Of a stretch of 18,562 bases of DNA, positions 716 through 18,002 are shown one piece after another. Under the pieces are notes generated by a model. The model made no database searches, had not been told where the DNA came from, and saw nothing but the letters and a program-made list of their open reading frames with translations. Numbering within the stretch: position 1 is the stretch's first letter; every line of letters starts with the position of its first letter. Made by a program: the position numbers and the translations under genes. The stretch is from a virus (lineage: Duplodnaviria; Heunggongvirae; Uroviricota; Caudoviricetes), in IMG/VR virus record IMGVR_UViG_3300030021_000030, positions 1 to 18,562 of that record. The stretch is one strand, 5' to 3'.

Positions 716-747
716 AGCCCTCGCGTTGAGGGCTTTACTGATTTTTT
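716..747 (+). terminator. Putative rho-independent terminator downstream of grxA
   Basis: Inverted repeat agccctc (716-722) / gagggct (728-734) with 5-nt loop, followed by a T-rich stretch (tttttt at 742-747). Overlaps the convergent ybjM stop. Confidence 0.45.
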
Positions 748-1381: not shown

Positions 1382-3067
1382 GTGAATATAAACGTCGCCG
1401 AATTGTTAAATGGGAATTACATTCTGTTATTATTTGTGGTCCTCGCGCTTGGGCTATGTCTCGGAAAGTTACGACTTGGTTCGATCCAACTGGGTAATTC
1501 CATTGGCGTTTTAGTCGTATCGCTGTTATTAGGCCAACAACATTTCAGCATTAACACCGATGCGCTTAATCTTGGCTTTATGCTGTTTATTTTCTGCGTC
1601 GGGGTCGAAGCCGGACCGAACTTTTTTTCCATTTTTTTTCGCGATGGGAAAAATTACCTAATGTTAGCACTGGTGATGGTTGGCAGTGCGCTGGTGATCG
1701 CCTTAGGGTTAGGTAAGCTGTTTGGCTGGGATATTGGCCTGACGGCCGGTATGTTAGCAGGCTCTATGACGTCGACACCGGTTCTGGTCGGTGCTGGCGA
1801 TACACTGCGTCATTTCGGCATGGAAAGCAGGCAGCTCTCACTGGCACTGGATAATCTGAGCCTCGGGTATGCCTTAACCTATTTAATCGGTCTGGTGAGT
1901 TTGATTGTTGGTGCGCGTTACTTGCCGAAATTGCAGCATCAGGACTTACAGACCAGCGCCCAGCAAATCGCCCGCGAACGTGGCCTGGACACTGATGCCA
2001 ACCGTAAGGTTTATTTACCGGTGATCCGCGCCTATCGCGTCGGCCCGGAGCTGGTGGCCTGGACCGACGGCAAAAATCTGCGTGAACTGGGTATTTATCG
2101 ACAAACCGGCTGCTACATTGAACGTATTCGACGTAACGGGATTCTGGCAAATCCAGACGGTGATGCCGTGCTACAAATGGGCGATGAAATAGCGTTGGTA
2201 GGCTATCCCGACGCCCATGCCCGACTCGATCCCAGCTTCCGTAACGGTAAAGAAGTTTTCGATCGTGACCTTCTCGACATGCGTATCGTCACTGAAGAAG
2301 TGGTCGTTAAAAACCATAACGCTGTAGGTAAACGTCTCGCACAACTGAAGTTGACCGATCACGGTTGCTTCCTTAACCGCGTCATTCGTAGCCAGATTGA
2401 GATGCCGATAGATGACAACGTCGTGCTTAACAAAGGTGACGTTTTACAAGTCAGCGGCGATGCCCGCCGCGTAAAAACCATCGCCGATCGCATCGGCTTT
2501 ATCTCGATTCACAGCCAGGTCACTGACCTGCTGGCATTTTGCGCCTTCTTTGTTATTGGGCTGATGATCGGGATGATCACCTTCCAGTTCAGCACATTCA
2601 GTTTCGGCATGGGGAACGCTGCCGGGTTGTTATTCGCCGGAATTATGCTGGGCTTTATGCGTGCTAACCACCCGACCTTCGGTTACATTCCGCAAGGTGC
2701 ATTAAGCATGGTGAAAGAGTTCGGCTTGATGGTGTTTATGGCAGGCGTTGGTCTGAGCGCCGGTAGCGGTATTAATAACGGCCTGGGCGCGATTGGCGGT
2801 CAGATGTTGATTGCCGGATTAATTGTCAGTCTTGTGCCCGTGGTTATCTGTTTCTTGTTCGGTGCTTATGTATTGCGAATGAACCGCGCACTGTTGTTCG
2901 GCGCAATGATGGGCGCACGCACCTGCGCGCCGGCAATGGAGATCATCAGTGATACAGCTCGCAGTAACATCCCTGCGCTGGGCTATGCGGGCACCTACGC
3001 AATCGCCAACGTCCTGCTGACGCTGGCAGGGACAATCATCGTCATGGTATGGCCAGGATTAGGATAA
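1382..3067 (+). CDS. ybjL: Putative transporter YbjL (AAE-family permease with two central TrkA-C/RCK_C domains), 561 aa, GTG start
   Basis: 561-aa ORF beginning [20 protein letters not shown]...; hydrophobic N- and C-terminal halves separated by a soluble region; start codon is GTG at 1382. Confidence 0.9.
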
Positions 3068-3179
3068 AACTGAAGTTGCCCTGAAAATGAAATTTTTTTG
3101 CACAACCGCAGAACTTTTCCGCAGGGCATCAGTCTTAATTAGTGCCACTGCTTTTCTTTGATGTCCCCATTTTGTGGAG

Positions 3180-3225
3180 CCCATCAACCCCGCCATTTCG
3201 GTTCAAGGTTGATGGGTTTTTTGTT
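3180..3225 (+). terminator. Rho-independent terminator downstream of ybjL
   Basis: 10-bp perfect stem cccatcaacc (3180-3189) / ggttgatggg (3207-3216) followed by TTTTTT (3217-3222). Confidence 0.6.
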
Positions 3226-3302
3226 GCCTGAAATTTATGCCTTTTAAAATCATGATGTTAGAAGCACTGTTTTTTAACGATGGCGACAAATTGGCGGCAG
3301 CG

Positions 3303-3521
3303 TCAAAGAGAGAGCGCCACCTGTCCTGATTTCATTGGATGCGGCTGAACCGGATTTGACTCTTTTGGCGTTGCAATCGAACGAACAAAAGTTTCATGGG
3401 TAACAAAAGTATGGCTGCAGTTAATGTTCTGGCACTGGTTGTAACGCTCTTTGGTCAATGAAGATACCTGAAAACTGCTGCGAGTATGGGCGGCACTTCC
3501 ACACAGTGGGCAAATCATCAT
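3303..3521 (-). CDS. ogr: Ogr-family late-gene transcriptional activator (zinc finger), 72 aa
   Basis: MMICPLCGSAAHTRSS...KERYNQCQNINCSHTF: Cys-X2-Cys ... Cys-X4-Cys zinc-binding motif typical of P2 Ogr / P4 Delta. Start moved to the internal Met so the product is 72 aa, the length of P2 Ogr. Confidence 0.85.
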   Translation of the reverse strand: MMICPLCGSAAHTRSSFQVSSLTKERYNQCQNINCSHTFVTHETFVRSIATPKESNPVQPHPMKSGQVALSL

Positions 3522-3611
3522 TTTTCGAGTTCTCCCCATTTTTGCTAAATTCACAATAATGATACCGCATTATTCCATTTTGAAAACTTAAAAGTTCTCC
3601 ATTGCGAAGAA

Positions 3612-4712
3612 TCATTCCATTTCGAAATCATCAATCTTCACTTCAAGCTCCAGACTGGTCGTAAAACCGTTATCCGGGCTGACGGTATGTGTCAGAGTCG
3701 TAATGGTCCATTCCGCATCATCTATCGGCTGTTTAAAACCACTGACCTTCACAGGCATTTCCGTGTAGAGATCTGCCCGCCCTTCCGCCAGTTGTAGCGA
3801 GAATGACGCAACGCCGCGTTGCAGGCGTTCCCACTGCATTTTTGCCGCTCGTTCGGCGTTGCTCCGGTTGGCATAAGTGCGATTAAGTACCAGCACGTTT
3901 TCATCCGTCCCCACCAGGTAATCGCCCTGCTTCGCTTCCGGCTCTTTCTTCTGCTTCTTAGTCCTGTGCTTACGCTTCACCGTAGTGCTTTCTTTCTTCG
4001 CGGGTTCGCGGGTATGCAACCAGCTGGCAATTACCCCCGTGTAGGCTCCGCGATCTGCCAGGGTAAAGCGGTGACTGTCGCCGTCCTTGCGTGTGATAGT
4101 GATCACCGGCAGTGGTTTACCAGTGGCGCTTTTGCCCTGTCCCTGCCGGATGAATAACAGATTGCCATTTTTCACCGACGCGATGGCACCGTACTGGCGC
4201 GCCAGCCGCATCAGAAAACTGCCGTCACTCTCATTAGTCTGGTCTATATGCTCCACGGGCTTATCCGACAGGTCTTTACCCAGTGCCATCTTCAGCTTGT
4301 GACGCGCGGCTATTTCCTTCACCACTTCCCCGACAGTGGTCTTGTGCCACGATTTTTCACGGCGGGTATTCAGCGTTTCCCTAAAATCAGCACTTCGCGC
4401 CCGGATAGTCAGGCGATCCGGTGCGCCAGTGTGTTCAATCTCGTCCACCGTGAATGCCCCTTTCGGGAAAAGCGGCTGCCCCTTCCAGCCCAGCGCCAGC
4501 GTAATGACCGCACCACGGCGCGGCAGCACGATTTTTCCGTCGGCGTCGTCCAGCTCCAGATCAAGCTGGTCCGCTTCAAAGCCCCGGTTATCCGTCAGCG
4601 TAAGCCCCATCAGGCGGTTGACCAGCACAGTGGTGATATCCTTGCCTTCAATACTGATGCTGAATGCTGGAGTTTTGTTGCCTTTGTTAAGCAGTTCAGA
4701 GCTGAAATTCAC
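3612..4712 (-). CDS. D: P2 gpD-like tail protein (late control gene D family)
   Basis: 366-aa ORF with the LTDNRGFEADQLDLELDDADG and WAV-type motifs characteristic of gpD; lies between U and ogr as in P2. Confidence 0.9.
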   Translation of the reverse strand: MNFSSELLNKGNKTPAFSISIEGKDITTVLVNRLMGLTLTDNRGFEADQLDLELDDADGKIVLPRRGAVITLALGWKGQPLFPKGAFTVDEIEHTGAPDRLTIRARSADFRETLNTRREKSWHKTTVGEVVKEIAARHKLKMALGKDLSDKPVEHIDQTNESDGSFLMRLARQYGAIASVKNGNLLFIRQGQGKSATGKPLPVITITRKDGDSHRFTLADRGAYTGVIASWLHTREPAKKESTTVKRKHRTKKQKKEPEAKQGDYLVGTDENVLVLNRTYANRSNAERAAKMQWERLQRGVASFSLQLAEGRADLYTEMPVKVSGFKQPIDDAEWTITTLTHTVSPDNGFTTSLELEVKIDDFEME

Positions 4713-5194
4713 GACAGCAGCCCTCCCACCGTTTTACTGATATCGCTTAAGGCAGACGTTGCCGTATCCTGCAAATTATTCAGCTGCGCACTGAGATCAC
4801 CGAACATATCGGACAGGGATTCATCCACCCGTTTGAGCGACAGGGTGAACTCAATCCGGCGCGGCATACCATCGCGGAAAAACTCCGTTTTAGTCTGATT
4901 CAGTCCCTCAATCACATACATGCCGTAAATCGTGCCGCTGCCTTCAATCAGGGGCCATGCTTTTCCCTGTTCTGCCATCTGCTCCAGAGCCAGCAACGAC
5001 AGCCTGCCGCCCGTTATCTCTGGCATAAGAACACCAGAAAGCGTCAGCATGTCGTTGTCCGGTCCCAGAAACTGCGTGGACGGACGTCGGTTGACCCGGC
5101 TGTTTGCCGCATGTCGCCAGCTGCGTTGATACTGCAGTTCCTGATACGGCACAGTGCGCAGCATAAACACGTACAATCCCAGCACCATCATCAT
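4709..5194 (-). CDS. U: P2 gpU-like tail protein
   Basis: 161-aa ORF in the P2 position between T and D; 4-nt ATGA overlaps with both neighbours. Confidence 0.85.
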   Translation of the reverse strand: MMMVLGLYVFMLRTVPYQELQYQRSWRHAANSRVNRRPSTQFLGPDNDMLTLSGVLMPEITGGRLSLLALEQMAEQGKAWPLIEGSGTIYGMYVIEGLNQTKTEFFRDGMPRRIEFTLSLKRVDESLSDMFGDLSAQLNNLQDTATSALSDISKTVGGLLS

Positions 5195-8100
5195 GCGTCG
5201 TATCCCCCCTGATCGCTGTAGTTACTCCTGGCTTTTGCCTTCAGCCTGCGTTCACGTTCATCAAGCTGACGTGCCACCTCCCGCGCAATATCCTGCGCAC
5301 TTTGTCCTGGCTGCGTCTGAATGATGATCTGCATCGGTGCCTCAATCCGCTGAACGGGCGGCACAGTGGCTGCACGACTCACCATCGCTTCGTCGCCTTT
5401 CGCGGGAAGTGCCAAAGGGTGCAACGGTGGAAACTCTGCTGGCGCGGCAGCAACGCCCATCATTCCGGCAACAACGGCAGCCAGTGCAGCTGTATTTCTC
5501 CGGCTGGTCACATTTGCCGGGCCGTTAACAATTTCCGGCCCGTTTTCACCGACGATGCCAAACTGCCCGCGCGGGATATACCCGCCGCTGTCATACATCC
5601 CCGCAAAGCCATATCCCCATGACGGAAAACCACCCGATGGCATCATCACTTTACCGTCTGCATTCACCGTCGCAGGTTGCTGACGCGTCACGCTTTCCGG
5701 CAGTTTCGCCTTTGCAGCTTCTTTACTGACAATGCCGAGTTTATCCAGCAACCAGGAAACACCGGATTTCAGGGAGTCCAGCGGATGCATGACCATATTC
5801 AGCCCTTCCGCCAGTGCCTCCCCGAATCGTCGCCCCATTGCCGCTGCGCTCTGCAGTTCGGCAGAGGTCGACTTAACAGGCGTCAGCAGATTAGTAAACC
5901 AGCCCCACAGCGCCTGTACTTTGTCGCCAATCCACTGAAACACAGGCTTAAGTGGTTCGAATGCAGCACTGATGGGACCTGCCGCCGCTTTGAATCCTTC
6001 CACCACGCCACCGAGAAATGCGGTGATGGGTTGCCAGTATTTCCAGACAACCAGCGCTACGCCTGCCAGTGCAGTAACCACAAGACCTATCGGACTGAGC
6101 AGAGCACCTAACAGACCAGATATGGCATACAGGGCAACGCGCAGCATCGCCAGCGGACCGGATGCCAGCACACGAAGCACCGTGCCTGCGGAGGCCAGTC
6201 CACCGCGCAGTACCGCCAGAGGATTCATAAACATCACAGCAACAGCACGTAAACCGGATAATCCAGACCGCAAAAGTGCAACCGGCGCACCTGCTACAGT
6301 TTTCAGGACATTTCCCGTCAGTGATGCCGTGCGGCGCAAAGACGACAACGGCGCAGTAAGTAAACCTGCGGCGTTGCCCGATGAAGCAAGCCCGCGTCGC
6401 AGCAGTGCCAGTGGTGCGCAAGCTAACCAGGACAACGCGCTGCTGGTTCGTGTTACTGCTGCCGTAACGGAAGGTAACGTTTTGATACCCAGCACAGCAG
6501 CCAACACCACAGCCAGGGTGCCGAGGCCCACAGTAACAGCAGCCACAACCGCGGCTACTTTCATCAGTGTGCCCGTCAGTTCAGGGTTAGCTTCCACCCA
6601 GCGACGCAACGCCCCCGTGATGCTTTTCACCGTGTACAGAATATCCATCAGCGGCTGGCGCAGCGTTTCGCCCAGGCTGCTGAAGGTGTTCTGCGCTCCG
6701 GTTTTGACCAGCAACCACTGCGCAGAAAGTGAGTCCTTGTTAATGTCGGATTCTTTCTGCATCGAACCGAGCGCATCATTGCCCGCTGTCAGTTTTAGCT
6801 GGCGCTGCAGTTCCGGCAGGTTGTTTGCCAGTTTCGCCGCATCATCGCCAAACTCTTTACCAAACAACATGGTCATGGCAGACAGGCGCTTATCCTGCGG
6901 CAGTGCGTTCACCTTCTCCAGTACGCGCTGGATAGTTCCCATCGCATCCTTCGTCATCTGCTTTTCAATCACTTCAGGATTGAGTTTCAGCAGATTCATT
7001 CCTTCAAAGAAACTCTTGCTTTGCATGGTCGCAATGGACAATTCACGCACCATCGCGTTGGCAGCACTGGCAGCGACCTCCGGCGCAGCCCCCAGTGTCA
7101 GGAAGGTGGAACCCAGCGCCGCCGCTTTACGATAATCCAGACGATCAGCCACACCGCCCAGGCGTTGCATGACATCAATGATGTCTGCCCCTTTCGACAT
7201 AGCGTTATCATCCAGATAGTTCAGCGCATCACCGAGCTGTTCAATATTGCGGGTTGGTATTTTGTAGAGCTGGGCGATTTTCCCCAGACTTTCTGACAGT
7301 TCATCCGCTGGCAGCTCAAAGGCTGTTGCCGCCTTTGCTGCCGTACTGGCGAAGGCCAGCAGGTCACGTTTCTGGTCCTCCCAGCTGTCGTCAGGGTTTG
7401 CCACATTCATGCGCGCACCACCTTCAACCAGTGCGGCGAAGTCCACAGCACCGTTTTCCATTGGCAGCTGTTCACTGGCAGCTTTGATGGCATCCTGCAT
7501 TTCGTAAAAACGCGCAGTGCGGTTGCCATTATCGTCACGCAGACCATTGACCTGCTTTGCCACACCTTTCATGGCATCTTCCATGCTGGTATAGCTTTTT
7601 ACCGCCGCCATCACTGGCGCGCCCATTGCCAGCCCTGCAGCCGTGGTGGTGGCTCCGGCTCCTGCGATGCGATCGCGCACTTCAAGCCGTCTTGAGTATT
7701 GTTCTCTGGCAGCCTTCATCCGTGCCTGTTGTTCACCCAGACGTTTAAGTGCTTTTTGCTGGCCCTCCAGTGCCTGACGAGTTTCTTCGGCATTTTTCTT
7801 AAGTTCTCGCTGGGCACTACTGAGTTGTCTGGTATCAATCCCTGATTCTTTAAGTGCCTGACGTTGTCTCTGGACCGCCCCCAACAAGCCGTTATAGGTC
7901 TGCTGAAGTTCCTGTACTCGTGTTTTGGCCTGACTGAATAACTTTGCCTGCGCGGCGGTTGGCCTGTTAGTGGCAGCAAATTGTGTGGCGAGTTTTGCCG
8001 CCTCTTCGCGGGCTGCGTTCAGGTTGTTGGCTGTTATGGCTAGTTGCGAGCGCGTCTTGCGAAATTCATCAATTCTGCCAGCCTGCTTATTCAGTTCTTT

Positions 8101-8229
8101 GAGGCTGTTTCGGGTATTCTGAATTGCGCCAGCCAGCTCTTTCGAACTGGCCTGTGCAGCACGGAATGGGCGGGTGAGTTTGTCAACCGCATTAAGAATG
8201 ACCTGCAGGCGCAGGTTATTATCACTCAT
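5191..8229 (-). CDS. T: Tail tape-measure protein (gpT-like), 1012 aa
   Basis: Very long ORF with an N-terminal coiled-coil/Ala-rich region and central hydrophobic Gly/Ala repeats, in the canonical position after E/E'. Its ATG overlaps the E' stop (ATGAGTGA). Confidence 0.9.
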   Translation of the reverse strand: MSDNNLRLQVILNAVDKLTRPFRAAQASSKELAGAIQNTRNSLKELNKQAGRIDEFRKTRSQLAITANNLNAAREEAAKLATQFAATNRPTAAQAKLFSQAKTRVQELQQTYNGLLGAVQRQRQALKESGIDTRQLSSAQRELKKNAEETRQALEGQQKALKRLGEQQARMKAAREQYSRRLEVRDRIAGAGATTTAAGLAMGAPVMAAVKSYTSMEDAMKGVAKQVNGLRDDNGNRTARFYEMQDAIKAASEQLPMENGAVDFAALVEGGARMNVANPDDSWEDQKRDLLAFASTAAKAATAFELPADELSESLGKIAQLYKIPTRNIEQLGDALNYLDDNAMSKGADIIDVMQRLGGVADRLDYRKAAALGSTFLTLGAAPEVAASAANAMVRELSIATMQSKSFFEGMNLLKLNPEVIEKQMTKDAMGTIQRVLEKVNALPQDKRLSAMTMLFGKEFGDDAAKLANNLPELQRQLKLTAGNDALGSMQKESDINKDSLSAQWLLVKTGAQNTFSSLGETLRQPLMDILYTVKSITGALRRWVEANPELTGTLMKVAAVVAAVTVGLGTLAVVLAAVLGIKTLPSVTAAVTRTSSALSWLACAPLALLRRGLASSGNAAGLLTAPLSSLRRTASLTGNVLKTVAGAPVALLRSGLSGLRAVAVMFMNPLAVLRGGLASAGTVLRVLASGPLAMLRVALYAISGLLGALLSPIGLVVTALAGVALVVWKYWQPITAFLGGVVEGFKAAAGPISAAFEPLKPVFQWIGDKVQALWGWFTNLLTPVKSTSAELQSAAAMGRRFGEALAEGLNMVMHPLDSLKSGVSWLLDKLGIVSKEAAKAKLPESVTRQQPATVNADGKVMMPSGGFPSWGYGFAGMYDSGGYIPRGQFGIVGENGPEIVNGPANVTSRRNTAALAAVVAGMMGVAAAPAEFPPLHPLALPAKGDEAMVSRAATVPPVQRIEAPMQIIIQTQPGQSAQDIAREVARQLDERERRLKAKARSNYSDQGGYDA

Positions 8230-8658
8230 CGTTGGCCCCGCTTCTCTGAATCGCTTTATACCGCCATTCCAGCACTTCGGTCAGCGGCATAACGTCAGTA
8301 ACGGATGGCGGCCAGTGAAAGATGGTGGCGATATCAGCCACCAGATCGTCAACCGTCAGGCTGTCGGTAAACCGGCAAGCACCGACTTCTTCAACAAAAA
8401 AGTGACAACCTCAACCGACATGGCAGTGAGATCTGCCGGGTCCATCTCTGCAATTTCCTGTGCAGTCAGTGCCGGACTGGAGATGCGGGGGATCACGGTC
8501 ATCATCGCGTTTACATCCATATCCATAATGGCCTGCAGGCGTGTACCGCGCAGCGCACCGGACTGCGGTTTACGCAGCACAATTTCGGTGATTTCTGTTT
8601 TACCGCGCTTGATGGGGGTATCCAGTTGAATGGTCTTTTCAGTCTGCTTATCGCTCAT
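8222..8658 (-). CDS. E: Tail assembly chaperone gpE and the frameshifted fusion product gpE+E' (E alone is 8356..8658; E' extension is in the -1 frame, 8222..8395)
   Basis: 100-aa gpE-like ORF; the T_TTT_TTG slippery heptamer sits at codons F87-L88. Manual translation of the -1 frame from the slip site gives a 59-codon open extension (VEEVGACRFTDSLTVDDLVADIATIFHWPPSVTDVMPLTEVLEWRYKAIQRSGANDE) ending at a TGA that overlaps the T start codon. Confidence 0.8.
8395..8401 (-). other. Programmed -1 ribosomal frameshift slippery site T_TTT_TTG (E/E')
   Basis: Minus-strand sequence ACT TTT TTG read directly from plus-strand caaaaaa (8395-8401); same heptamer as the P2 E/E' site. Confidence 0.75.
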
Positions 8659-8712
8659 TTTGCTGTCCTGTCAATTGGGTTCTGGCGCGGTATCCCGCGC
8701 CGTTCAGATATA

Positions 8713-9228
8713 TCAGAGGCCGAGGGCGTTGCGGTGCGCTTCCATCAGGTCCACACCGTCCACAATTTCCACCATGTTGATAAGGTCCACTTCATAGAGC
8801 ACCTCACCATTGATGGTCAGCTTCGCGTAGCTGTTGGTACTGGTCACTTTGGTGGTGTTGCTTTCGCCCGTCTTCCACTCGCCGGAATCCACTTCTTTGT
8901 GACGTCCACGCACGACAAGCTCCACGGCCTGCACTTCCCCGGTATCGTCACGCTGAATAGAGCCGGTAAAGCGCAGCTGGATGCCATCCACCGTGGCTTT
9001 ACCCATCTGTTTAAACAGCAGCAATTCAGTACCACCAATGGAAAATTCTGTGTCCAGCGCACTGTCATCAAGCCCCAGATCCACATCAACTGCACCAGGC
9101 ATTCCGCCGCCGCGATACTTCTCATATTTGCGGGTGAATTTCGGCAGCGTCAGCGACTCAACGATCCCCTGCCAGTTGTTCCCGTCGTTAAACAGGTTCA
9201 GGTGTTTTAATTTGCGTGGTAAAGCCAT
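8713..9228 (-). CDS. FII: Major tail tube protein (gpFII-like)
   Basis: 171-aa ORF beginning MALPRKLKHLNLF..., recognisable as the P2 FII tail tube family; follows FI. Confidence 0.9.
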   Translation of the reverse strand: MALPRKLKHLNLFNDGNNWQGIVESLTLPKFTRKYEKYRGGGMPGAVDVDLGLDDSALDTEFSIGGTELLLFKQMGKATVDGIQLRFTGSIQRDDTGEVQAVELVVRGRHKEVDSGEWKTGESNTTKVTSTNSYAKLTINGEVLYEVDLINMVEIVDGVDLMEAHRNALGL

Positions 9229-9237
9229 GTTGTCCCC

Positions 9238-10410
9238 TTACGCGCTGACCTGGCTGGCGAAATTCACCAGGTACTGATCGGTGATGCGCTGACGCAGCAT
9301 CAGGTTTTCAAGTGGCGGCACTGGCGTGTAGTCGTAGTCGATGGTGAGTTTTCCGGCTTTCAGCGTGTCTTTGTCGTTCACCGACTCATCCAGCCAGCAA
9401 TCACCACCAATGAGATAGCCCTGACTGACCAGGCTGCGCATTTTGGCGCGGATACCTTCGATAATGTCGCGGGCCAGCGACGGGTTAAGCGGTTTATCCA
9501 CCGCCCACATGTGTGCTTCTGCCATCGTGTCCATCAGCACCTGCGCCGTGCGGGTGTAGTTTTCGAAGGCAAAGAGCGGGTCATCACTCAGACAGCGGGA
9601 ACCCCAGAAGCGGAAACCGTCTTTACGCACAAGCGTAGTGACGTCGTTCTGGTTCAGCAGACCTGCATCGGTTGCCGGGTCCTGCAGATCCCAGAACACA
9701 TCTGCAGAAATTCCGGTGACACCGTTCACGCCCACGTTGGACAGGCTTTTGTGCCATCCGGTCTGCTCGTCAATTTTGGCGCGCAGACCAAGCGCACGGG
9801 CGGTGGCATATGCCGTTGCTTCGGCATTCAGCACCGTGTCCCAGCCAGTAAAGTCAGGCCAGATCAGCATCCCTTCGCGCTGGCTGAAGTTTTCGCGGTA
9901 AGTGATCGCCTCCTGCACTGTCTTGCAGCCATACGCTGACAGGTAAGCAAATCCACGCAGGCTTTGCGCCACGCTCAGCAACTCAGTAGCTACCGCCTTG
10001 GTGTCGTGGCCTGGCACGCCGAGAATGCGCGGTTTAACGCCGAGCTGTGACTGGGCAGATAACAGGGCTTTCATACCTGTTTTTTTACCTTCAGCAGTCA
10101 CTGCGCCGATGATATTGGTCGTGGTTTCGTCTTCCGTTTCACCCTGCGGCACACGCACAACAATGGTCACGGGTTTTGCCTGGTCAGCGATGGCATCCAG
10201 CGAACGGGCCAGAGTACCTGACTCACCCGCTTTACCGCTGGCAGTCAGCACATCAGTGATCAGCACGGGTTTATTAAGAGGAAACATTTTTGCATCGGCA
10301 TCATCGCCCGTGCAGACCATACCCACGATGGCGGTGCTCACCGTGGTAATAGATCGGGTGCCTTCGTTGACTTCAACAACGCGCACCCCGTGGTGGTAAT
10401 CCTGAGCCAT
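9238..10410 (-). CDS. FI: Contractile tail sheath protein (gpFI-like)
   Basis: 390-aa ORF ([19 protein letters not shown]...[11 protein letters not shown]...[20 protein letters not shown]) closely resembling P2 FI along its whole length. Confidence 0.9.
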
Positions 10411-10486
10411 AGTGGCGAACCTCCTGATTGGATTAGGCTTCGCCCTATGTTGAAGTGATTGTGCCTGACAAACAGCTAAGCGCAGT

Positions 10487-10504
10487 TGTGTCGTTATTCA
10501 CACA
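10487..10504 (-). promoter_or_regulatory. Candidate Ogr-dependent late promoter activator site (TGT-N12-ACA) upstream of FI
   Basis: TGTgtcgttattcacACA dyad in the 142-bp gap between the invertase stop and the FI start. P2/P4 late promoters carry TGT-N12-ACA centred near -55. Confidence 0.4.
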
Positions 10505-10552
10505 AAATGACGGTATTTGTCTACTTGCAGGGATAATCAAAATAATGCTGAT

Positions 10553-11119
10553 TCAGGGGGATTCATTGCTCTTATTTGCCGGAAATTTTCTATAAATGGT
10601 AGAAACGCCTACATCAAAAATCAGTGCAATACGCTGTCTTGATTCTCCGGCCTCGAGTAAACGCCCAATCTGTGCCCACTGTTCGGTGGTCAACTTAGGA
10701 CGGCGTCCACCTACTCTGCCTTTGGCACGAGCTGCAGCCAGCCCTGCCATGGTACGTTCAACTATCAGTTCGCGTTCCATTTCAGCCATGGCACCCATGA
10801 CATGAAAAAAGAAACGGCCCATTGGGGTGCTGGTATCAATACTGTCAGTCAGACTTCGGAAATTCACGCCACGCTGACGCAACTCTTCTATCAGCGTAAC
10901 AAGATGCCGCATACTGCGCCCCAACCTGTCCAGCTTCCAGACAACCAGAGTGTCTCCTGCCGATAGTGTCCTGAGCAGTTTTTTAAGCCCCGGTCTGTCG
11001 GACTTAGTGCCACTGATTTTATCCTCAAAAATCCGCTCACATCCCGCGCAGTTCAGTGCATTACGTTGCAAATCGGTGTTCTGGTCATTTGTTGACACGC
11101 GTACATAGCCAATAAGCAT
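10553..11119 (-). CDS. Serine recombinase, DNA invertase of the Gin/Hin/Pin/Cin family
   Basis: Translation from the internal Met: MLIGYVRVSTNDQNTDLQ...VVWKLDRLGRSM...FFFHVMGAMAEMERELIVERT...C-terminal HTH. The catalytic Ser is in the YVRVSTNDQ motif. GGGA Shine-Dalgarno lies upstream of the ATG at 11119. Confidence 0.85.
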   Translation of the reverse strand: MLIGYVRVSTNDQNTDLQRNALNCAGCERIFEDKISGTKSDRPGLKKLLRTLSAGDTLVVWKLDRLGRSMRHLVTLIEELRQRGVNFRSLTDSIDTSTPMGRFFFHVMGAMAEMERELIVERTMAGLAAARAKGRVGGRRPKLTTEQWAQIGRLLEAGESRQRIALIFDVGVSTIYRKFPANKSNESP

Positions 11120-11174
11120 GATCAATCCCCTGAATAAAAACCGTGGATGATGCCAGTTAGCCATTATCTCTGCA

Positions 11175-11200
11175 TTTTCATAAACGTTGGTTTGGGAGAA
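11175..11200. repeat. gix/hix-like 26-bp invertase crossover site (invertase-proximal)
   Basis: TTTTCATAAACGTTGGTTTGGGAGAA fits the Hin/Gin site consensus TTnTCnnAAACCnnGGTTTnnGAnAA and is 20/26 identical to the reverse complement of the site at 12275-12300. Confidence 0.6.
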
Positions 11201-11545
11201 GCGGCGAAAAGGGGTGTGGGCACAGGAGATAATCAGATACCGGATATGGGAGCATTCGCTTCTGGTTCGGGATGGTTCAGGCTACCAGGTGGATATATTG
11301 TTCAGTTTGGCACTTTTGCAGGAAACACGACCCGCTTTATCAGTGGACACTTCCCTATACCATTCCCTAATCAGCCGATGGTTTCAGTCAGTGTTATGTC
11401 TGATGCCGTTCAGTCAGACCCGTCGATTCCTGCCCCGCAGGTTTTGTCTGTAAATTTTGAACATATCAGTAATTCAGCGTGGCGTGTGGCAACCAGTGAT
11501 ATCTCACAGCAATACAGATTCAGTTATATTTCGATAGGACGGTAG
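11201..11545 (+). CDS. Promoterless alternative tail-fibre C-terminal segment (Sv'-like), expressed only after inversion
   Basis: Open frame runs through the gix-like site and encodes ...GWFRLPGGYIVQFGT..., parallel to the current H C-terminus ...GYFELPGGLLLQWGH... There is no plausible independent start; the ORF-track Met at 11147 lies inside the invertase gene region. Confidence 0.6.
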   Translation, partial: AAKRGVGTGDNQIPDMGAFASGSGWFRLPGGYIVQFGTFAGNTTRFISGHFPIPFPNQPMVSVSVMSDAVQSDPSIPAPQVLSVNFEHISNSAWRVATSDISQQYRFSYISIGR

Positions 11546-11547
11546 AA

Positions 11548-11973
11548 ATGCAGAAATATATTTTCAGTGCCGATAAAAATGCGTTTTTCCCTGTGGAGCT
11601 TAAAATCGCTTATCAGGAATCCGGCGAATGGCCCGATGATGGAATCGAAATTGACGACACTGTTGCCGCCGAATTTATGAAGGAAGCACCAGAAGGAAAA
11701 TACAGAGGTGTCATCGACGGAATGCCAGCATGGATTGATATTCCACCACCAACTCATGAGGAACAAATTGCTGCAGCCGAATTGGAAAAGCAGCAATTGA
11801 TTAATCAGGTCAACGAATACATAAACAGTAAGCAGTGGCCTGGCAAATCGGTGCTTGGACGCCTGAAAGATGATGAATTAACGCAGTACAATTTATGGCT
11901 GGATTATCTTGATGCGCTGGAAGCGGTGGACGTATCCAGCGCTCCAGATATTGTTTGGCCCTCCTCAACCTAA
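11548..11973 (+). CDS. Tail fibre assembly chaperone (Tfa/gpG/Mu U family)
   Basis: 141-aa ORF immediately after the Sv' segment (3-nt gap) with the conserved C-terminal Tfa-like region ...QYNLWLDYLDALEAV...; opposite strand to H. Confidence 0.75.
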   Translation: MQKYIFSADKNAFFPVELKIAYQESGEWPDDGIEIDDTVAAEFMKEAPEGKYRGVIDGMPAWIDIPPPTHEEQIAAAELEKQQLINQVNEYINSKQWPGKSVLGRLKDDELTQYNLWLDYLDALEAVDVSSAPDIVWPSST

Positions 11974-12001
11974 ATAAAAAGCCGCTCTACGCGGCTTTCT
12001 C

Positions 12002-13336
12002 TTACATCCCGAGTGCAAAATACGTATAGCTGTCAATATTGTTTACCGTGCCGTTTCCATTCCATCCATAAAGGCTAAAGCTAGTTAAGGTATAATTAGA
12101 TGACGTCACATACCGACCATCAGTTGTGATTTTATGCGGCAGTACAATGAACGGAGTGACGTTAAACGACTTCTTAAACTGTATAATGGCACTTGACGCA
12201 TGAATCGAGCCGTGCCCCCATTGCAGCAGCAATCCTCCCGGTAATTCAAAGTACCCATCAGCCTCCAGTAACCGCTCTCCAAAACCAAGGTATGTGAGAA
12301 GACCAGTTACATCCTTTCCACTCAAATTAGTCAGCGTATTGTCCAGCGGTTGTTTACCTGCCAGTGCATTAAGCATTGTCGTGGCAAAGTTCGGGTCATT
12401 CCCCAGCGCCGCCGCCAGTTCGTTCAGTGTATCCAGTGCCGCAGGTGCAGAACCCACCATTGCCGCAATCGCCGATTTCACAAATGCCGTGGTGGCAATT
12501 TGTGTATTGTTGACCGACTGTGCCGCAGTAGGTGCGGTTGGCGTTCCGGTGAGTGCCGGACTCGACAGCGGCGCTTTCAGTGCCAGCGCATTGTTAATGG
12601 TGGTACTGAATTTCGGATCATTGTTAATGGCTGCGGCTATTTCTTTCAGCGTGTCCAGCGTGGCTGGCGCACCATTAATAAGAGCCGTCAGAGCCGCCTG
12701 AACAAACTCGGTGGTCGCAATCTGCGTGGTGTTATTCCCTGCTGCTGGCGTTGGCGCTTTGGGTGTCCCGGTAAACGTCGGACTTTCTTTGGGTGCATAC
12801 TGTGAATGCGGGTCCGGTGCGGCAAGATGTTTTGCCATCAGGTCATCCACGTACACCTTCAACTCCAGTGCTTTGTCATCCACATACTTGCGGGTTGCCA
12901 GCACTACAGCAGGGTCGATTTTCAGGGTGATATTGTCCGTGCTGCTGGTTATCAGCACCATGCGCACGGTCTGGGTGCGCCCGCTGCCTTCAGCCAGTTG
13001 CGGCTTATAGCTTTCCGGGCAGTTGCCCACGGCAATCAATGCCCCGGACTCATCAAACAGGCCCACTTCACGTATCCACCAACCACCCTCGTTTTCAGGG
13101 ATCACCTGTTCAGCAATAATCTGGCTGCTGTTCTGCGGGTCGATATAAAGCATATTCAGCGCAGCCCGGCGTTTCTCATTTACCAGTGCCGTCTGCTTTG
13201 CGTCCGGCGTTGGCAATACTCCGCCGCCATCGCCCACCGCCATATGAGTAATTTTTAGCGGCACACCGAGCGCGGCGGCGCTGGCAAGTTTCGCCGCGCC
13301 AATATCCGTTAGCAGGGTATAAAATTTTGTGCTCAT
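12002..13336 (-). CDS. H: Tail fibre protein (gpH-like): constant N-terminal part plus the currently fused variable C-terminal tip
   Basis: 444-aa ORF with the conserved P2/Mu/P1 tail-fibre N-terminus (MSTKFYTLLTDIGAAKLASAAALG...) and repeated TQIATTEFV / TQIATTAFV collar motifs. The last ~90 codons lie inside the invertible segment. Confidence 0.9.
   Translation of the reverse strand: MSTKFYTLLTDIGAAKLASAAALGVPLKITHMAVGDGGGVLPTPDAKQTALVNEKRRAALNMLYIDPQNSSQIIAEQVIPENEGGWWIREVGLFDESGALIAVGNCPESYKPQLAEGSGRTQTVRMVLITSSTDNITLKIDPAVVLATRKYVDDKALELKVYVDDLMAKHLAAPDPHSQYAPKESPTFTGTPKAPTPAAGNNTTQIATTEFVQAALTALINGAPATLDTLKEIAAAINNDPKFSTTINNALALKAPLSSPALTGTPTAPTAAQSVNNTQIATTAFVKSAIAAMVGSAPAALDTLNELAAALGNDPNFATTMLNALAGKQPLDNTLTNLSGKDVTGLLTYLGFGERLLEADGYFELPGGLLLQWGHGSIHASSAIIQFKKSFNVTPFIVLPHKITTDGRYVTSSNYTLTSFSLYGWNGNGTVNNIDSYTYFALGM
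12275..12300. repeat. gix/hix-like 26-bp invertase crossover site inside H
   Basis: CTCTCCAAAACCAAGGTATGTGAGAA; its reverse complement TTCTCACATACCTTGGTTTTGGAGAG encodes LTYLGFGE of H and matches the site at 11175-11200 in inverted orientation. Confidence 0.6.
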
Positions 13337-13938
13337 GGATTCACTCTCATTGTGTCAATAACATGGACCGCCCCGCCTTCATGCGCGGTGCCGCCGGAAA
13401 TAATTGTTTCGTTGATATACGGATAGATCGTGATTTCTTCGCCAAGATAGCTGGCGGCTCCCACCCAATGCGGGCCGCTGGTCTGCAGGTTGATGGACAT
13501 GCCGATCATGTGACGGCTACATGGTTTGGCATCGCTTATCAGTCGCTCAAGTTCCAGATAGGTATCTTCAGTGATGCCCTGGTCCTGCACGCCGATATCC
13601 AGACGAAACGTGCCCGGTGTTTCTCCGGTATGCCACCACTCAATAATGCGGATCAGAAAGCCGAACGGTTCCACTACCCGCCGCACTGCACTGGTGGTTC
13701 CTTTATGCTGATGAATATAAAAAGCATCCTTCACCACCTGACGTTTGACGCTTTCAGTCCAGCCCTCATCCCAGCGATCCACAGAGAACGCCCAGGCGAG
13801 ATAAGGCAGGAAGCTGACCGGACAGGTCGCCGGATTCCACAAGTCACGAAGCGGCACCTGCAGATCAGAAATCCCGCTGCAGGTTTGCGCCAGTCGGCGC
13901 TCCAGTGGTGTTGAACCCGGTGGCAGCAGACTATTCAT
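13333..13938 (-). CDS. I: Baseplate protein gpI-like
   Basis: 201-aa ORF in the P2 position between J and H with 4- to 8-nt coupled overlaps. Confidence 0.8.
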   Translation of the reverse strand: MNSLLPPGSTPLERRLAQTCSGISDLQVPLRDLWNPATCPVSFLPYLAWAFSVDRWDEGWTESVKRQVVKDAFYIHQHKGTTSAVRRVVEPFGFLIRIIEWWHTGETPGTFRLDIGVQDQGITEDTYLELERLISDAKPCSRHMIGMSINLQTSGPHWVGAASYLGEEITIYPYINETIISGGTAHEGGAVHVIDTMRVNP

Positions 13939-14839
13939 CCGTTCCTCCGTTGGTTACGCTCCACTGCGTACATGATGCCGCCTGTGTTTTGTTCAGGACC
14001 ACATCCGCCAGAGGAGAAGCCAGCTCCACACGCTGCACACCCTCAACATGCAGGGCGGCAAAGATGGCGCTACGGCGAATATCCCGACCAAGACGCGTCT
14101 GACTGGCGATGTACTTCTGCAGGCTGGCTTTTGCCGCTGCCATTACCGGCTCTGCTTCCGGTCCCGGATAGAGAAAAATGGTGGCTTCCACGCGATACGG
14201 GATGATTTCTGCGCTGCGAACCGTAAGACGGTCAGCCACCGGGCGTACGTTCTCACTGTTCAGAGCTTTTTCCACCACGTCCAGCAGGTCCTTTTCTGCA
14301 GTTCCATCGCCTTCGCGGCTCAGAACAGTCAGCACCACCTCTGCAGGTGCCGGGCTGGTTGCACTGGCATCCGCCACCCGACCGTCGGCGCTTCGGGCAT
14401 GAAATTCATAAGCTGCAGTTGGCCCCGCAACTGAAAGTCCTTCAAAGGCTGCAGGCACACGCAGGCGTAACGCTTCATCACTTTCCATCACAGCCGCAAC
14501 AGGCGGTACAGCGTCATCATCAGCAGGTGTCACCGTCAGGCGTTTCACGTTGTAGTTGGCAGCGAGCTGGTCAAGATCGCTGCCCATCGCGTAAGCCACC
14601 ATCACAGCCTGCGCGGCTTCGTTAATGCGCTGGCGCAGAAGCAACTCACGGTAAGCGTTCTCCTGCAGCAATTTGGTGACGGGTTCAGATTCAAGCTCCA
14701 GCGTACGCATCACTGCTTCCTGCTCATCTTTCGGATGAAGCGCCACAAATTCGGCCTTGCGTTCGGAAAGCAGCGTCTCAAAGTCCGGCACATCCACAAT
14801 CTGCGGCGCAGGTAACTGCGAAAGGTCAATCACTGCCAT
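13931..14839 (-). CDS. J: Baseplate protein gpJ-like (302 aa from the Met at 14839)
   Basis: MAVIDLSQLPAPQIVDV... matches the P2 gpJ N-terminus. The ORF-track start at 14878 is rejected in favour of the conserved Met. Confidence 0.85.
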   Translation of the reverse strand: MAVIDLSQLPAPQIVDVPDFETLLSERKAEFVALHPKDEQEAVMRTLELESEPVTKLLQENAYRELLLRQRINEAAQAVMVAYAMGSDLDQLAANYNVKRLTVTPADDDAVPPVAAVMESDEALRLRVPAAFEGLSVAGPTAAYEFHARSADGRVADASATSPAPAEVVLTVLSREGDGTAEKDLLDVVEKALNSENVRPVADRLTVRSAEIIPYRVEATIFLYPGPEAEPVMAAAKASLQKYIASQTRLGRDIRRSAIFAALHVEGVQRVELASPLADVVLNKTQAASCTQWSVTNGGTDE

Positions 14840-15185
14840 TCTCTGCTCCTGTTGATACGGAAAGGGAAACAGGCACACCGTTATTACGCCGCCCGGTCAG
14901 CTCCACCACCATTGAACCGTCAAAATTGCTGTTGATGGTGATGGAATCCAGCGTCAGCCGTGGCTCCCAGCGACTCAGCGCCACATACACTGCCGACATG
15001 ACCTGCAGGCGTAATGCCGGATTTTGTGGCTGGTCTATCAGTGTCGACAACAGGGAACCATATTCCCGACGGGCAATGCGGCTACCCTGCGGTGTCAGTA
15101 GAATGTCCCGCACCGACTGACGCAGATGGTCAATATCAGTAATGGCTTTACCGCTGGTATTGTTCATCCCGCTATAAAGCGTCAT
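14826..15185 (-). CDS. W: Baseplate wedge protein gpW-like (GPW/gp25 family)
   Basis: 119-aa ORF between V and J, of the size and position of P2 gpW. Confidence 0.85.
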   Translation of the reverse strand: MTLYSGMNNTSGKAITDIDHLRQSVRDILLTPQGSRIARREYGSLLSTLIDQPQNPALRLQVMSAVYVALSRWEPRLTLDSITINSNFDGSMVVELTGRRNNGVPVSLSVSTGAENGSD

Positions 15186-15760
15186 ACCGGACCTCCAGTC
15201 GTGTCGCCGCCTTTCAGGACGCCAGTATGCTGATGCGCATCAACCACGATCCCGTTAGAACTCATCGCTCCGCCACCCTGGGTAACGCCACCATTGATCA
15301 CCACTTCGCTGTTAATGCGCGTGCGGTCAGCCTCCAGTACAAACTCACTGGTTTTCATGGTGATGTTATCAGCGGCCTCAATGACCATTGATTTGATGCC
15401 CCTGACATACCAGCTCCCGGTGGCGGGTTCGTATTCAAACCAGCCACCGTCAGGATGTTCTGTCACGCAGGCGTCCGCCGACGTCGACGGTGGTGCGAAC
15501 TGATTCGAATAGACAGCGGGCAGCGCAAAGGCAGTCTCCAGATTGCCTCCCAGACTCAGCAGCACCACCTGCTCACCTTCCGATGGTTTCCACCATGTGC
15601 GGGCATTACCCGCGCGCAGCGTCAGCCAGCTGATCCAGTTGGTTTCAAGGTCGCCCGTTTTCACCCGGCAAAGCCAATTCTCCCGGTCCACTTCGGTAAC
15701 TACACCTGTGCGGATCAGATTGGTGATAAGGCGCATGATTTCGGTTAATTGTGCGTTCAT
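15182..15760 (-). CDS. V: Baseplate spike/assembly protein gpV-like (193 aa from the Met at 15760)
   Basis: MNAQLTEIMRLITNLIRTGVVTEVD...RTWWKPSEGEQ... closely parallels the P2 gpV N-terminus; the longer ORF-track start at 15826 is unlikely. Confidence 0.85.
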   Translation of the reverse strand: MNAQLTEIMRLITNLIRTGVVTEVDRENWLCRVKTGDLETNWISWLTLRAGNARTWWKPSEGEQVVLLSLGGNLETAFALPAVYSNQFAPPSTSADACVTEHPDGGWFEYEPATGSWYVRGIKSMVIEAADNITMKTSEFVLEADRTRINSEVVINGGVTQGGGAMSSNGIVVDAHQHTGVLKGGDTTGGPV

Positions 15761-15806
15761 ACCGTATATATTAAACATTTGAAATAATATCTTCCAAACG
15801 GCATAA

Positions 15807-15837
15807 TTGTACTGAGGATGACACAAATGATTATAAA
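15807..15837 (+). promoter_or_regulatory. Candidate sigma70 promoter for the ATPase/TOPRIM cassette, in the divergent V/cassette intergenic region
   Basis: TTGTAC (15807-15812), then TG-n-TTATAAA extended -10-like element (15828-15837); AAGGA Shine-Dalgarno at 15861-15865, 7 nt before the ATG at 15873. Confidence 0.3.
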
Positions 15838-15872
15838 TTTAAGTAGCTCAACTAATAATAAAGGATACATAG

Positions 15873-17129
15873 ATGTATAAAATTCAAAGCGTCACAATTA
15901 ATGGCTTTTGGCAGCGATTAAACTGTTCCTGCTCATTTAATGATGATGTAAATATTATTATAGGCCGAAATGGCACGGGTAAAACAACCTTTATGAACCT
16001 TCTGCACTCAATATTATCCCTTGATTTGGACAGTATTAACAATGCTGATTTCAATAGTGCCGAAATAAAACTTAAAGATAAAAAAAAGACAAAAACAATC
16101 AAAGTCAAAAAACTTGAAAGCGATACATCTCCATTTTCCAAAATAGAATATCAGCTTTCATCTAAAAAACACACAATTCGTTTATTTAACACTGATGATA
16201 GAAGAATATCTCTTAGTTATAGACGTAGAGTGCATGATGAAACAGAAGAACTAAGAACAGAACTAGCAAAACTAGTCTCGCTTTCTTCTTTATCTGTTTA
16301 CAGATTAAGAAATAGTGATGATTTTGAAGTTAAAGATAAATATGGCTCTCGTTTTATCAACCCTGTTGACTATAAGTTATCAGAATTAATACAGGAACTT
16401 ACAAAATATCAACTTGAACTATCCCAGAAAGCCAGAGATATCGCATTAGAACTGCAAAAAGAGGTTCTGGCATCAATACTTTATAGCAAGGAAGATATGG
16501 AGAATCCTGCTTACAACATTAACTTTAACAAAGAGGAAGAAAAACAAAACCTCCTTAATGCATACACACAGTTAAATGCTATTGATCAAAACATTCGTAA
16601 AAAAATCAGCTTTCATGTTGAAACAATTAATAATACCATTTCGGAATTAAAGAATAAAAGTGAAAGTGGCTTTGATATTCGTTCGATCGAAGCATTGAGA
16701 AAAACACAAAAAATAATCAAAATGTCATTAACTTCAAAAGAGAAAACATCAAAAATATTTTCTCCAATAGAACAATTCTTAAGCATACTAAGAAATTTTA
16801 TCACCGATAAAGAATTTCATTTTCAATCGGGATTGTTAGTCATAAATAACACCTATGGGCCAATAGTTTTAGAAAGTTTATCTTCTGGTGAAAAACAACT
16901 GCTAATTTTATTCATTGAGACCCTCTTACAAAGAGGGCAACAATATATTTTCCTAACTGATGAGCCTGAGCTTTCCTTACATATTCAATGGCAAAGAAAT
17001 ATTATCCCTGCCATAAAAAAATTAAATCCTAATGCACAAATTATTGCTGCAACCCATTCTCCTGAAGTTGCATCTAAATATAAAAACGCCATTTTCAATA
17101 TGGAGAGATTAGTCAATGCTAATCAATGA
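15873..17129 (+). CDS. ABC/SMC-like ATPase (AAA_15/AAA_21-type), 418 aa; candidate AriA-like component of a PARIS-type defence system
   Basis: Walker A GRNGTGKTT (aa 31-39), ABC signature LSSGEKQ (aa 336-342), Walker B YIFLTDEPE (aa 358-366), H-loop AATHS (aa 392-396). A Lys/Glu-rich, probably coiled-coil insertion separates Walker A from the signature. The region is strongly AT-rich relative to the flanking phage. Confidence 0.8.
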   Translation: MYKIQSVTINGFWQRLNCSCSFNDDVNIIIGRNGTGKTTFMNLLHSILSLDLDSINNADFNSAEIKLKDKKKTKTIKVKKLESDTSPFSKIEYQLSSKKHTIRLFNTDDRRISLSYRRRVHDETEELRTELAKLVSLSSLSVYRLRNSDDFEVKDKYGSRFINPVDYKLSELIQELTKYQLELSQKARDIALELQKEVLASILYSKEDMENPAYNINFNKEEEKQNLLNAYTQLNAIDQNIRKKISFHVETINNTISELKNKSESGFDIRSIEALRKTQKIIKMSLTSKEKTSKIFSPIEQFLSILRNFITDKEFHFQSGLLVINNTYGPIVLESLSSGEKQLLILFIETLLQRGQQYIFLTDEPELSLHIQWQRNIIPAIKKLNPNAQIIAATHSPEVASKYKNAIFNMERLVNANQ

Positions 17130-17973
17130 TTCTAATGCAGAAAACTTTTCTTGGTCTAATGAAGCGGAAAATGTGATCAGTTTATTTTATGATGCTGATA
17201 TTATGGTCTATGTTGAAGGTGAAGATGACATTGCTTTTTGGGAAATAATTTTTAAAAAAAATGGTCGTTTTAATGTAGAAGTTCAAGATGTTGGTGGATG
17301 TGAAGCTTTACAACCATATATCGAAAAAATAACCTCAGGAGAAATAAACGCCATAGTTGCCAGAGATTCGGATCTAAACCATTTTTCTGACAACATAGTA
17401 AAGCATACAAATATTATTTACACAAAGGGATATTCAATAGAAAACACAATCATTGATGAAAAAATCATATCACACATACTCAAAAACACAGGCCGTTTTT
17501 GCACGAAAAAAATGCAGGAAATAGATGTGGAAAATTGGCTTTCTAATTTCTATAGCAACATTGAGAACTTAATAATACTAGATATTCACAATCATTTAAA
17601 TAAATTAGGATGCTCCGTAATTGGTGATTCCTGTGATCGTTTTATGCAATCAAGAAATTCATACAATATATGCAAGGAAAAAATAGATGAATATATCAAT
17701 AGACTACCTGAATCGTTTACTACTAATGGTTTAGCAGAAAAAAACAACATTCAATTCCCAGAAAATACATCTATAAATCATTGGGTGAAAGGGCACTTTC
17801 TTTTCTCAGCATCATTAAGATTTATAACAAACTTTTTGGCATCCATCAATAAAAAAACCTCTATATCCAAGGATAGTTTTTACGCAAACATCTTGTCTGC
17901 ATTTGAGATTTTTTATACAGAAGAACATGCTGATTATAGTTATTACAATCAAAAGATAGGGGCCATCACATAA
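17116..17973 (+). CDS. TOPRIM/DUF4435-like putative nuclease, 285 aa; candidate AriB-like effector
   Basis: N-terminal VYVEGEDD (conserved Glu, aa 34) and ARDSD (DxD, aa 84-86) resemble TOPRIM metal-binding motifs of OLD/DUF4435 proteins. The start overlaps the ATPase stop by 14 nt, with a GAGAGA Shine-Dalgarno inside the upstream gene. Confidence 0.7.
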   Translation: MLINDSNAENFSWSNEAENVISLFYDADIMVYVEGEDDIAFWEIIFKKNGRFNVEVQDVGGCEALQPYIEKITSGEINAIVARDSDLNHFSDNIVKHTNIIYTKGYSIENTIIDEKIISHILKNTGRFCTKKMQEIDVENWLSNFYSNIENLIILDIHNHLNKLGCSVIGDSCDRFMQSRNSYNICKEKIDEYINRLPESFTTNGLAEKNNIQFPENTSINHWVKGHFLFSASLRFITNFLASINKKTSISKDSFYANILSAFEIFYTEEHADYSYYNQKIGAIT

Positions 17974-17982
17974 AAAAATAAA

Positions 17983-18002
17983 GGCTGGCTTTTATGCCAG
18001 CC
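17983..18002 (-). terminator. Hairpin terminator at the 3' end of S, preventing late-operon read-through into the cassette
   Basis: ggctggc (17983-17989) / gccagcc (17996-18002) stem with 6-nt loop. On the minus strand it is followed by TTTATTTTTT; on the plus strand it directly follows the cassette stop codon. Confidence 0.5.

Follow-up and report, generated by a model that had tools for sequence, protein, structure and literature searches.

The P2 late promoters PP, PO, PV and PF share a common TGT-N12-ACA dyad and are Ogr-dependent (PMC3931495). In the P2 RefSeq record, the centre of the PF activator site lies 83 bp before the FI ATG and 56.5-58.5 bp away from the annotated start sites, the site of PV is centred ~55.5 bp before the V ATG, with its start site at the first base of the V coding sequence, and a single PP/PO site (centre 3071.5) lies 55.5 bp from each of two divergent starts (3016 and 3127). 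The P2 sites are themselves imperfect, reading TGT-N12-CCA at PF and at PP/PO and TGT-N11-ACA at PV, and because they deviate by one mismatch or by an N11 spacing, a perfect dyad is not in itself a functional criterion. The annotated B-protein sites of phage 186 are GTTGTGCCAGACATCATCCA (before pJ) and GTTGTGTGGGCGGTTGTCCA. The RefSeq annotations of P2 and 186, together with PMC3931495, form the basis of the rule applied here that the activator dyad is centred near -55.

PARIS systems (AriA/AriB) are found in accessory hotspots of P2 and P4 (Rousset et al. 2022, PMC9122126; NAR 2026, PMC13586616), and published surveys have noted that the P2 tail genes contain a hotspot for accessory or defence genes (PMC13586616). 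The terms Ogr, orf30 and gpV are absent from PMC9122126 and PMC13586616, and the mentions of promoters in these two papers never concern a late promoter.

Here we analyse an 18,562-nt stretch of DNA from a tailed-phage record (IMG/VR IMGVR_UViG_3300030021_000030, positions 1 to 18,562), referred to throughout as the window, in which a sequence-only reading had tentatively proposed two TGT-N12-ACA dyads as Ogr/Delta sites of the FI and V late promoters. That proposal is upheld by our analysis: we assign both dyads, at a probability of about 0.9, as the activator sites of orthologues of the P2 PF and PV promoters, of the Ogr/Delta type, because their positions are conserved, a -10-like hexamer accompanies them at a fixed offset, they agree with the sites of P2 and 186, and an ogr homologue is present in the window. 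These two promoters represent a known kind of element in a new prophage, and the P2 late-control model is left unchanged by them. What sets this prophage apart is its baseplate promoter, which is located on an imported PARIS anti-phage cassette and interleaved with it; the rest is textbook P2 biology.

Prophage context and late gene order

According to ORF listing and Pfam scans, the window holds the tail half of a P2-like prophage, the late genes of which are on the minus strand. The prophage is a Wadgaonvirus-like member of the Peduoviridae inserted beside E. coli ybjL. Among phages it is closely related to Wadgaonvirus-type Peduoviridae from Escherichia and Klebsiella; among complete genomes the best matches are E. 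coli chromosomes that carry a prophage at ybjL, for instance that of strain S56 (96% coverage, 98.4% identity). The genes needed for the comparison are as follows.

1382-3067, ybjL, a host gene of the aspartate:alanine antiporter family, at the left end of the window
3303-3521, minus strand, ogr homologue (Pfam Ogr_Delta, 6.7e-22)
9238-10410, minus strand, FI tail sheath gene, first in the PF operon (Pfam Phage_sheath_1, Phage_sheath_1C)
10553-11164, serine DNA invertase gene (Pfam Resolvase and HTH_7)
15182-15760, minus strand, V baseplate spike gene, first in the PV operon (Pfam Phage_base_V, Apex)
15873-17129, plus strand, ariA-like ABC/AAA ATPase gene, divergent from V (Pfam AAA_15, AAA_21; PADLOC AriA, 7.6e-39)
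17116-17973, plus strand, gene for an ariB-like DUF4435 (TOPRIM) protein (Pfam DUF4435; PADLOC AriB, 4.1e-22)
17992-18450, minus strand, S (Pfam)

On the minus strand the gene order, taken from ORF positions and sizes, is ogr-D-U-T-E-FII-FI and H-I-J-W-V-(cassette)-S. FI, V, S, ogr and the invertase are confirmed by Pfam. The remaining late genes, which are D, U, T, E and FII below FI and, between the invertase and V, the tail fibre gene with I, J and W, were named from their position, their size and the way relatives are annotated. With the end of ybjL at 3067 and that of ogr at 3303, the attachment site and the edge of the prophage must fall within 3068-3302. The true start of V is ATG 15760, according to the annotated relatives, and its product begins MNAQLTEIM; the start at TTG 15826 returned by a mechanical ORF finder was rejected because the relatives start at the equivalent of ATG 15760.

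The serine DNA invertase gene lies directly upstream of PF, and beside it are plus-strand ORFs at 11147-11545 and 11548-11973. Their counterparts in strain EC596 carry the annotations gp53-like tail-fibre fragment and tail-fibre assembly protein. The segment 10553-11973 looks like an invertible host-range segment; an inverted-repeat search across 10400-13400 found no clear invertase crossover sites and one weak pair only.

The FI and V upstream gaps compared with P2 and 186

Both dyads are exact TGT-N12-ACA matches at the coordinates proposed for them, and each lies directly upstream of a late morphogenetic operon, the first before FI and the second before V. The elements assigned to the two putative promoters are listed below.

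10487-10504, minus strand, putative PF activator dyad TGTGTCGTTATTCACACA, that is TGT-GTCGTTATTCAC-ACA, centre 10495.5
10486-10505, extended form of the PF dyad, TTGTGTGAATAACGACACAA
10447-10452, minus strand, PF -10-like hexamer CAACAT, predicted +1 at about 10440
15808-15825, minus strand, putative PV activator dyad TGTACTGAGGATGACACA, that is TGT-ACTGAGGATGAC-ACA, centre 15816.5
15807-15826, extended form of the PV dyad, TTGTGTCATCCTCAGTACAA
15768-15773, minus strand, PV -10-like hexamer TAATAT, predicted +1 at about 15761, one base before the V ATG

The first dyad sits within the 142-bp gap 10411-10552, downstream of the invertase gene, and its centre is 85.5 bp from the FI ATG (10410). 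The second occupies the 112-bp gap between V and the ATPase gene (15761-15872), where the earlier estimate of about 56 bp between its centre and the V start becomes 56.5 bp given ATG 15760.

PF of P2 resembles the window PF in the operon that it serves, with the sheath gene FI first and ogr downstream of D in both phages, in the position of the site (centre 83 bp against 85.5 bp before the FI ATG) and in the type of -10 element, which is GAAAAT in P2, ahead of the annotated PF start, and CAACAT in the window at an equal distance from the dyad. Outside the motif, however, the two have no alignable similarity; the P2 site TGT-N12-CCA carries one mismatch, whereas the window site is perfect and extends to a longer palindrome, TGTGT...ACACA, and the upstream neighbour is fun(Z) in P2 and the DNA invertase in the window. 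The likeness at PV is of the same kind. The site lies ~55.5 bp before the V ATG in P2 and 56.5 bp before it in the window, the annotated P2 start at the V start codon implies a leaderless message, as is predicted for the window, and in both phages a non-essential accessory gene is transcribed away from V over a short gap, which measures 83 bp in P2 and 112 bp in the window. The differences are the TGT-N11-ACA spacing of the P2 site, the unrelated gap sequences and the divergent accessory genes themselves, as P2 has orf30 in this place and the window a two-gene PARIS cassette. The comparison with the P2 PF and PV regions that had been suggested as a check gives flanks that cannot be aligned and site positions that agree, as does the -10 spacing at PF. 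The P2 PP/PO site and the 186 B sites (p12/pV and pJ) share with the window sites the left half-site GTTGTG(y)C and a start distance of ~-55. The left half-site TTGTG(y)C is the common denominator of these sites, and the window palindromes are strong versions of it.

Both dyads exceed chance expectation

The sequence-only reading had cautioned that several such dyads would be expected by chance in 18 kb, and for the bare pattern this caution holds: TGT-N12-ACA matches the window seven times against 5.57 expected, and seven or more matches were obtained in 69 of 200 shuffles. The raw count is not significant and was dropped as evidence. The five other matches are at 749 and 1404, beside or in ybjL, and at 7182 (T), 9177 (FII) and 16834 (ariA), all three coding. 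For the extended motif the caution does not hold, as both sites lie above every shuffle. With a 22-column position weight matrix, for which 21 upstream contexts of types other than that of the window were used, the two dyads came out as the top two sites (23.0 and 22.7 bits on the two strands for site 1; 20.7 bits for site 2), with the next-best match in the window at 12.8 bits and the best matches of 100 shuffled windows at a median of 11.4 and a maximum of 18.1 bits. Besides these two dyads, no site in the window strongly matches the extended motif TTGTGyCA...ACAA. A P2-type region such as this should contain exactly two late promoters, PF and PV, and exactly two sites stand out. A third Ogr-like site, GTTGCGTCATTCTCGCTACAAC (3791-3812, minus strand, inside D and ~280 bp upstream of ogr), was rejected at 12.8 bits as no better than shuffled sequence, and is probably a chance match.

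For conservation, we collected from IMG/VR 80 loci with a close homologue of V and 80 with a homologue of FI, and compared their upstream DNA anchored on the start codon. BLAST alignment to P2, 186 and cassette-less relatives was discarded as a conservation test: homology stops at the FI and V start codons, and start-codon-anchored and dyad-anchored comparisons were therefore used instead. All 29 distinct sequences upstream of V carry the dyad, with its centre 54.5-57.5 bp from the ATG, and no further TGT-N12-ACA match was found within the 250 bp scanned. Upstream of FI the dyad is present in 65 of 65 distinct sequences, centred 78.5-85.5 bp from the ATG, and a second match occurs in only two of them, at 101.5 bp. 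Many of these loci are phylogenetically close, such that the counts overstate independence; this is mitigated by 14 V contexts and 9 FI contexts that, after greedy filtering, are mutually less than 60% identical outside the six fixed bases. Divergent contexts, with different cassettes or neighbours, share TTGTGyCA...ACAA and a short element near the start. The PV dyad is likewise kept in alignment A1 though the flanks diverge; P2 was misaligned there by MAFFT owing to the N11 spacing of its PV site.

Seven matches where about 5.6 are expected, a count that shuffling readily reproduces, is what would be seen if one or both dyads were functionless matches to a loose six-base pattern. The background rate of the dyad is ~3e-4 per position, which over a window of 4-8 positions gives a probability of ~1e-3 to 2e-3 per context, and its repetition across unrelated flanks is therefore not due to chance. 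Together with a position that does not vary among the distinct sequences examined upstream of V and FI, the -10-like hexamer linked at a fixed offset and the extended-motif scores, this makes the explanation by chance exceedingly improbable, and it is in effect already refuted.

Promoter geometry and predicted start sites

A -10-like hexamer of the form xAxxxT (A at position 2, T at position 6) accompanies the dyads at a single dyad-anchored offset. It is present in 55 of 55 distinct FI contexts (as GAACAT, CAACAT, TACCAT and others) and in 23 of 26 distinct V contexts, or 88% (as CAACCT, CAATAT, TAATAT and others). At other offsets its frequency is at most 11% for FI, except for side peaks of 36% at -11 and +12, and at most 15% for V, except at the adjacent +1 and at +19 (50% each). 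With the hexamer taken as -12 to -7, +1 falls at dyad centre + 55.5, and it is from this hexamer geometry alone that the start sites at 10440 and 15761 are predicted.

The predicted PF leader of 30 nt contains the Shine-Dalgarno sequence AGGAGG. For V, the message is predicted to be leaderless or to carry a 1-nt leader: of the 29 distinct contexts, 24 have the V ATG precisely at dyad centre + 55.5, and in the window V lacks a preceding Shine-Dalgarno sequence. The rigid dyad-to-ATG distance of V follows from this predicted leaderless message, and the 7-bp variation of the FI distance from a leader of variable length downstream of a promoter of constant geometry.

A consensus scan found no sigma-70-like site on the minus strand at PF or PV, and the sequence at the PV -35 position, TGGAAG, has three of six matches. 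The absence of a late-strand sigma-70 promoter is as expected for activator-dependent promoters. On the plus strand a sigma-70-like site was noted at 10517-10546 (TTGTCT, 18-bp spacer, AATAAT), directed antisense into the 3' end of the invertase gene and away from FI. The start predicted for it would be ~57.5 bp away from the centre of the PF dyad and would miss the late-promoter geometry by 2 bp; the site is probably due to chance.

From these comparisons a sharper rule can be stated, TTGTGyCA...ACAA followed by xAxxxT 44-49 bp after the dyad centre, which finds late promoters in this P2-like group far more specifically than TGT-N12-ACA.

The Ogr homologue and predicted late transcription

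The window Ogr homologue has 72 amino acids, is 51% identical to P2 Ogr over 72 aa and contains a CX2CX22CX4C motif. On this basis it is predicted to be a C4 zinc-finger late activator and the ligand of both dyads. By analogy with P2, 186 and P4, after induction the homologue would bind each dyad, centred at ~-55.5, and recruit RNA polymerase, and transcription would start near 10440, giving a 30-nt FI leader, and near 15761, giving a V message that is leaderless or nearly so. PF would then drive an FI-FII-E-T-U-D operon and PV a V-W-J-I-H operon. For annotation, the V start is fixed at ATG 15760 and PF and PV are placed, with predicted starts, in an uncharacterised Wadgaonvirus-like E. coli prophage.

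The PARIS cassette and its candidate promoter

Judged by its protein matches, the plus-strand cassette between V and S is a PARIS-type pair AriA/AriB, the two genes of which overlap by 14 nt. PARIS systems as a class are marked by a defence against phages that anti-restriction proteins such as Ocr set off. It resembles published PARIS systems in combining an ABC/AAA ATPase with a DUF4435/TOPRIM protein, in being carried by a P2-like prophage and in occupying a known accessory slot in the tail genes. The P2 defence hotspot as first described was gpA-gpQ, whereas the PARIS copy of the window is in the S-V (orf30) slot. The best candidate for a promoter of the cassette is the following.

15779-15807, plus strand, sigma-70-like promoter with hexamers TTGAAA (15779-15784) and CATAAT (15802-15807), a 17-bp spacer and 10 of 12 consensus matches

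Its -10 hexamer abuts the PV dyad, and the cassette +1 that it predicts, at ~15814, is inside the dyad. In the E22-type locus, with a cassette only 77% identical to that of the window, the spacer has diverged but the two hexamers and the distance between them are unchanged, which provides modest phylogenetic support for a cassette promoter at this position; the assignment thus combines one consensus match with conservation in a single divergent lineage. A common sigma-70 arrangement was sought across the other cassette families in the S-V slot and was not found. Wherever a cassette ORF could be identified upstream of V among the distinct contexts, it is divergent, and its first ATG is ~48-113 bp from the V ATG. 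As PV takes up ~65 bp of this gap, overlap with a cassette promoter is close to a geometric necessity. The proposed overlap of the V late promoter with the cassette promoter is therefore supported both by geometry and by the conserved sigma-70-like site.

The position of the dyad over the predicted ariA +1, in low-GC, cassette-like DNA, could also be expected of an operator belonging to PARIS, and the position of the other dyad in the 142-bp gap downstream of the invertase gene could be expected of an invertase crossover or enhancer site, in which case neither would be a late-promoter element. AriA homologues that do not adjoin V (L168, L169 and L171) have no dyad at the corresponding position, which assigns the dyad to V and not to PARIS, and on this ground a cassette-borne operator was rejected. 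Moreover, V homologues keep the dyad whatever cassette, or none, is upstream of them, and FI homologues without an adjacent invertase (in terminator-type and other contexts) keep theirs with the same geometry. We consider this dual explanation highly implausible, and retain the assignment of both dyads to late promoters.

The sequence-only reading had further supposed that the overlap could couple cassette expression to prophage induction. A positive coupling would result if the PV dyad were bidirectional, such that Ogr also switched on ariAB late. A single dyad can indeed serve two divergent promoters, as at P2 PP/PO and 186 p12/pV, and the P2 site at 3071.5, with starts at 3016 and 3127, has xAxxxT at the correct offset on both sides. 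The PV dyad lies in the exact middle of the 112-bp gap, 56.5 bp from both ATGs, and on the ariA side AAGGAT fits xAxxxT if the offset is shifted by 1. At the canonical offset, however, the ariA-side hexamer is AAAGGA, with no T at -7, so that, unlike PP/PO, the window dyads have a -10-like hexamer at the required offset on the late-gene side only. Across 26 contexts xAxxxT is present in 4% on the cassette side, compared with 88% on the V side. Nor is the symmetry conserved, as the E22 type has 52.5 bp, and the XJW9B277/813R9 type 45.5 bp, between the dyad centre and the ariA ATG; in addition, a start at 15872 would exclude the ariA Shine-Dalgarno sequence AAGGA (15861-15865), and a conserved sigma-70-like promoter is available further upstream of ariA. 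Ogr co-activation of the cassette is thus not supported by the mirror-side hexamer analysis, and we regard a bidirectional dyad as unlikely.

The overlap geometry instead suggests competition rather than co-activation by Ogr, which would make any coupling negative. With lower confidence than the late-promoter assignment itself, we propose that PARIS may be transcribed in the lysogen from the sigma-70 promoter at 15779-15807, interleaved back-to-back with PV, and that Ogr binding and polymerase loading at PV may compete with cassette transcription without stimulating it. Late in infection, Ogr on the dyad and polymerase at PV would then occlude the cassette promoter.

Probable location of PV on a low-GC exchangeable module

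The V-ariA gap belongs to a low-GC module, 15761-18051, that comprises the last ~60 nt of S, a terminator, ariB, ariA and the whole V-ariA gap with PV. GC content is 56% in V, 26.8% in the gap, ~31% in ariA and ariB, 26.7% in the last 60 nt of S and, in the remainder of that gene, 55%. A hairpin that overlaps the S stop codon marks the far edge of the module.

17983-18002, minus strand, intrinsic terminator hairpin at the end of S (the upstream late operon), with a T-run at 17973-17982

Similarity to cassette-less relatives ends exactly at the V ATG, and in those relatives the PV dyad lies 4 bp after the S stop codon, in GC-rich DNA. PV differs from one cassette family to the next in its spacer sequence, which is unrelated, and keeps an identical geometry. 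From the location of PV in the low-GC gap and the end of homology at the V ATG, we conclude that in the window prophage the essential late promoter PV is probably carried on an accessory, foreign-looking and exchangeable module. Whatever cassette fills the S-V slot, a PV of exact geometry is kept, and cassette promoters must share those ~65 bp.

A more general model, which we put forward tentatively and hold to be doubtful at present, is that throughout the S-V hotspot PV rides on the exchangeable cassette and not on the backbone, and that in the window prophage the Ogr dyad over the cassette +1 acts as a toggle that turns PARIS off as the baseplate genes are turned on. If such a toggle operates, the phage would keep its own abortive-infection system silent while it goes through its lytic cycle. 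The locus allows a direct test for cross-talk in regulation between the defence genes of a prophage and its late lytic programme.

At least three diverged PARIS lineages occupy the S-V slot, namely that of the window, the E22 type (77% identity) and the XJW9B277/813R9 type. Among complete E. coli genomes, strain EC596 (NZ_CP156718, L006) has the sole V-PARIS-S segment that is 100% identical to the window. The EC596 prophage is decayed, with the D-to-FI genes deleted and the replication and integrase genes reduced to pseudogenes; its PARIS cassette and PV region are intact.
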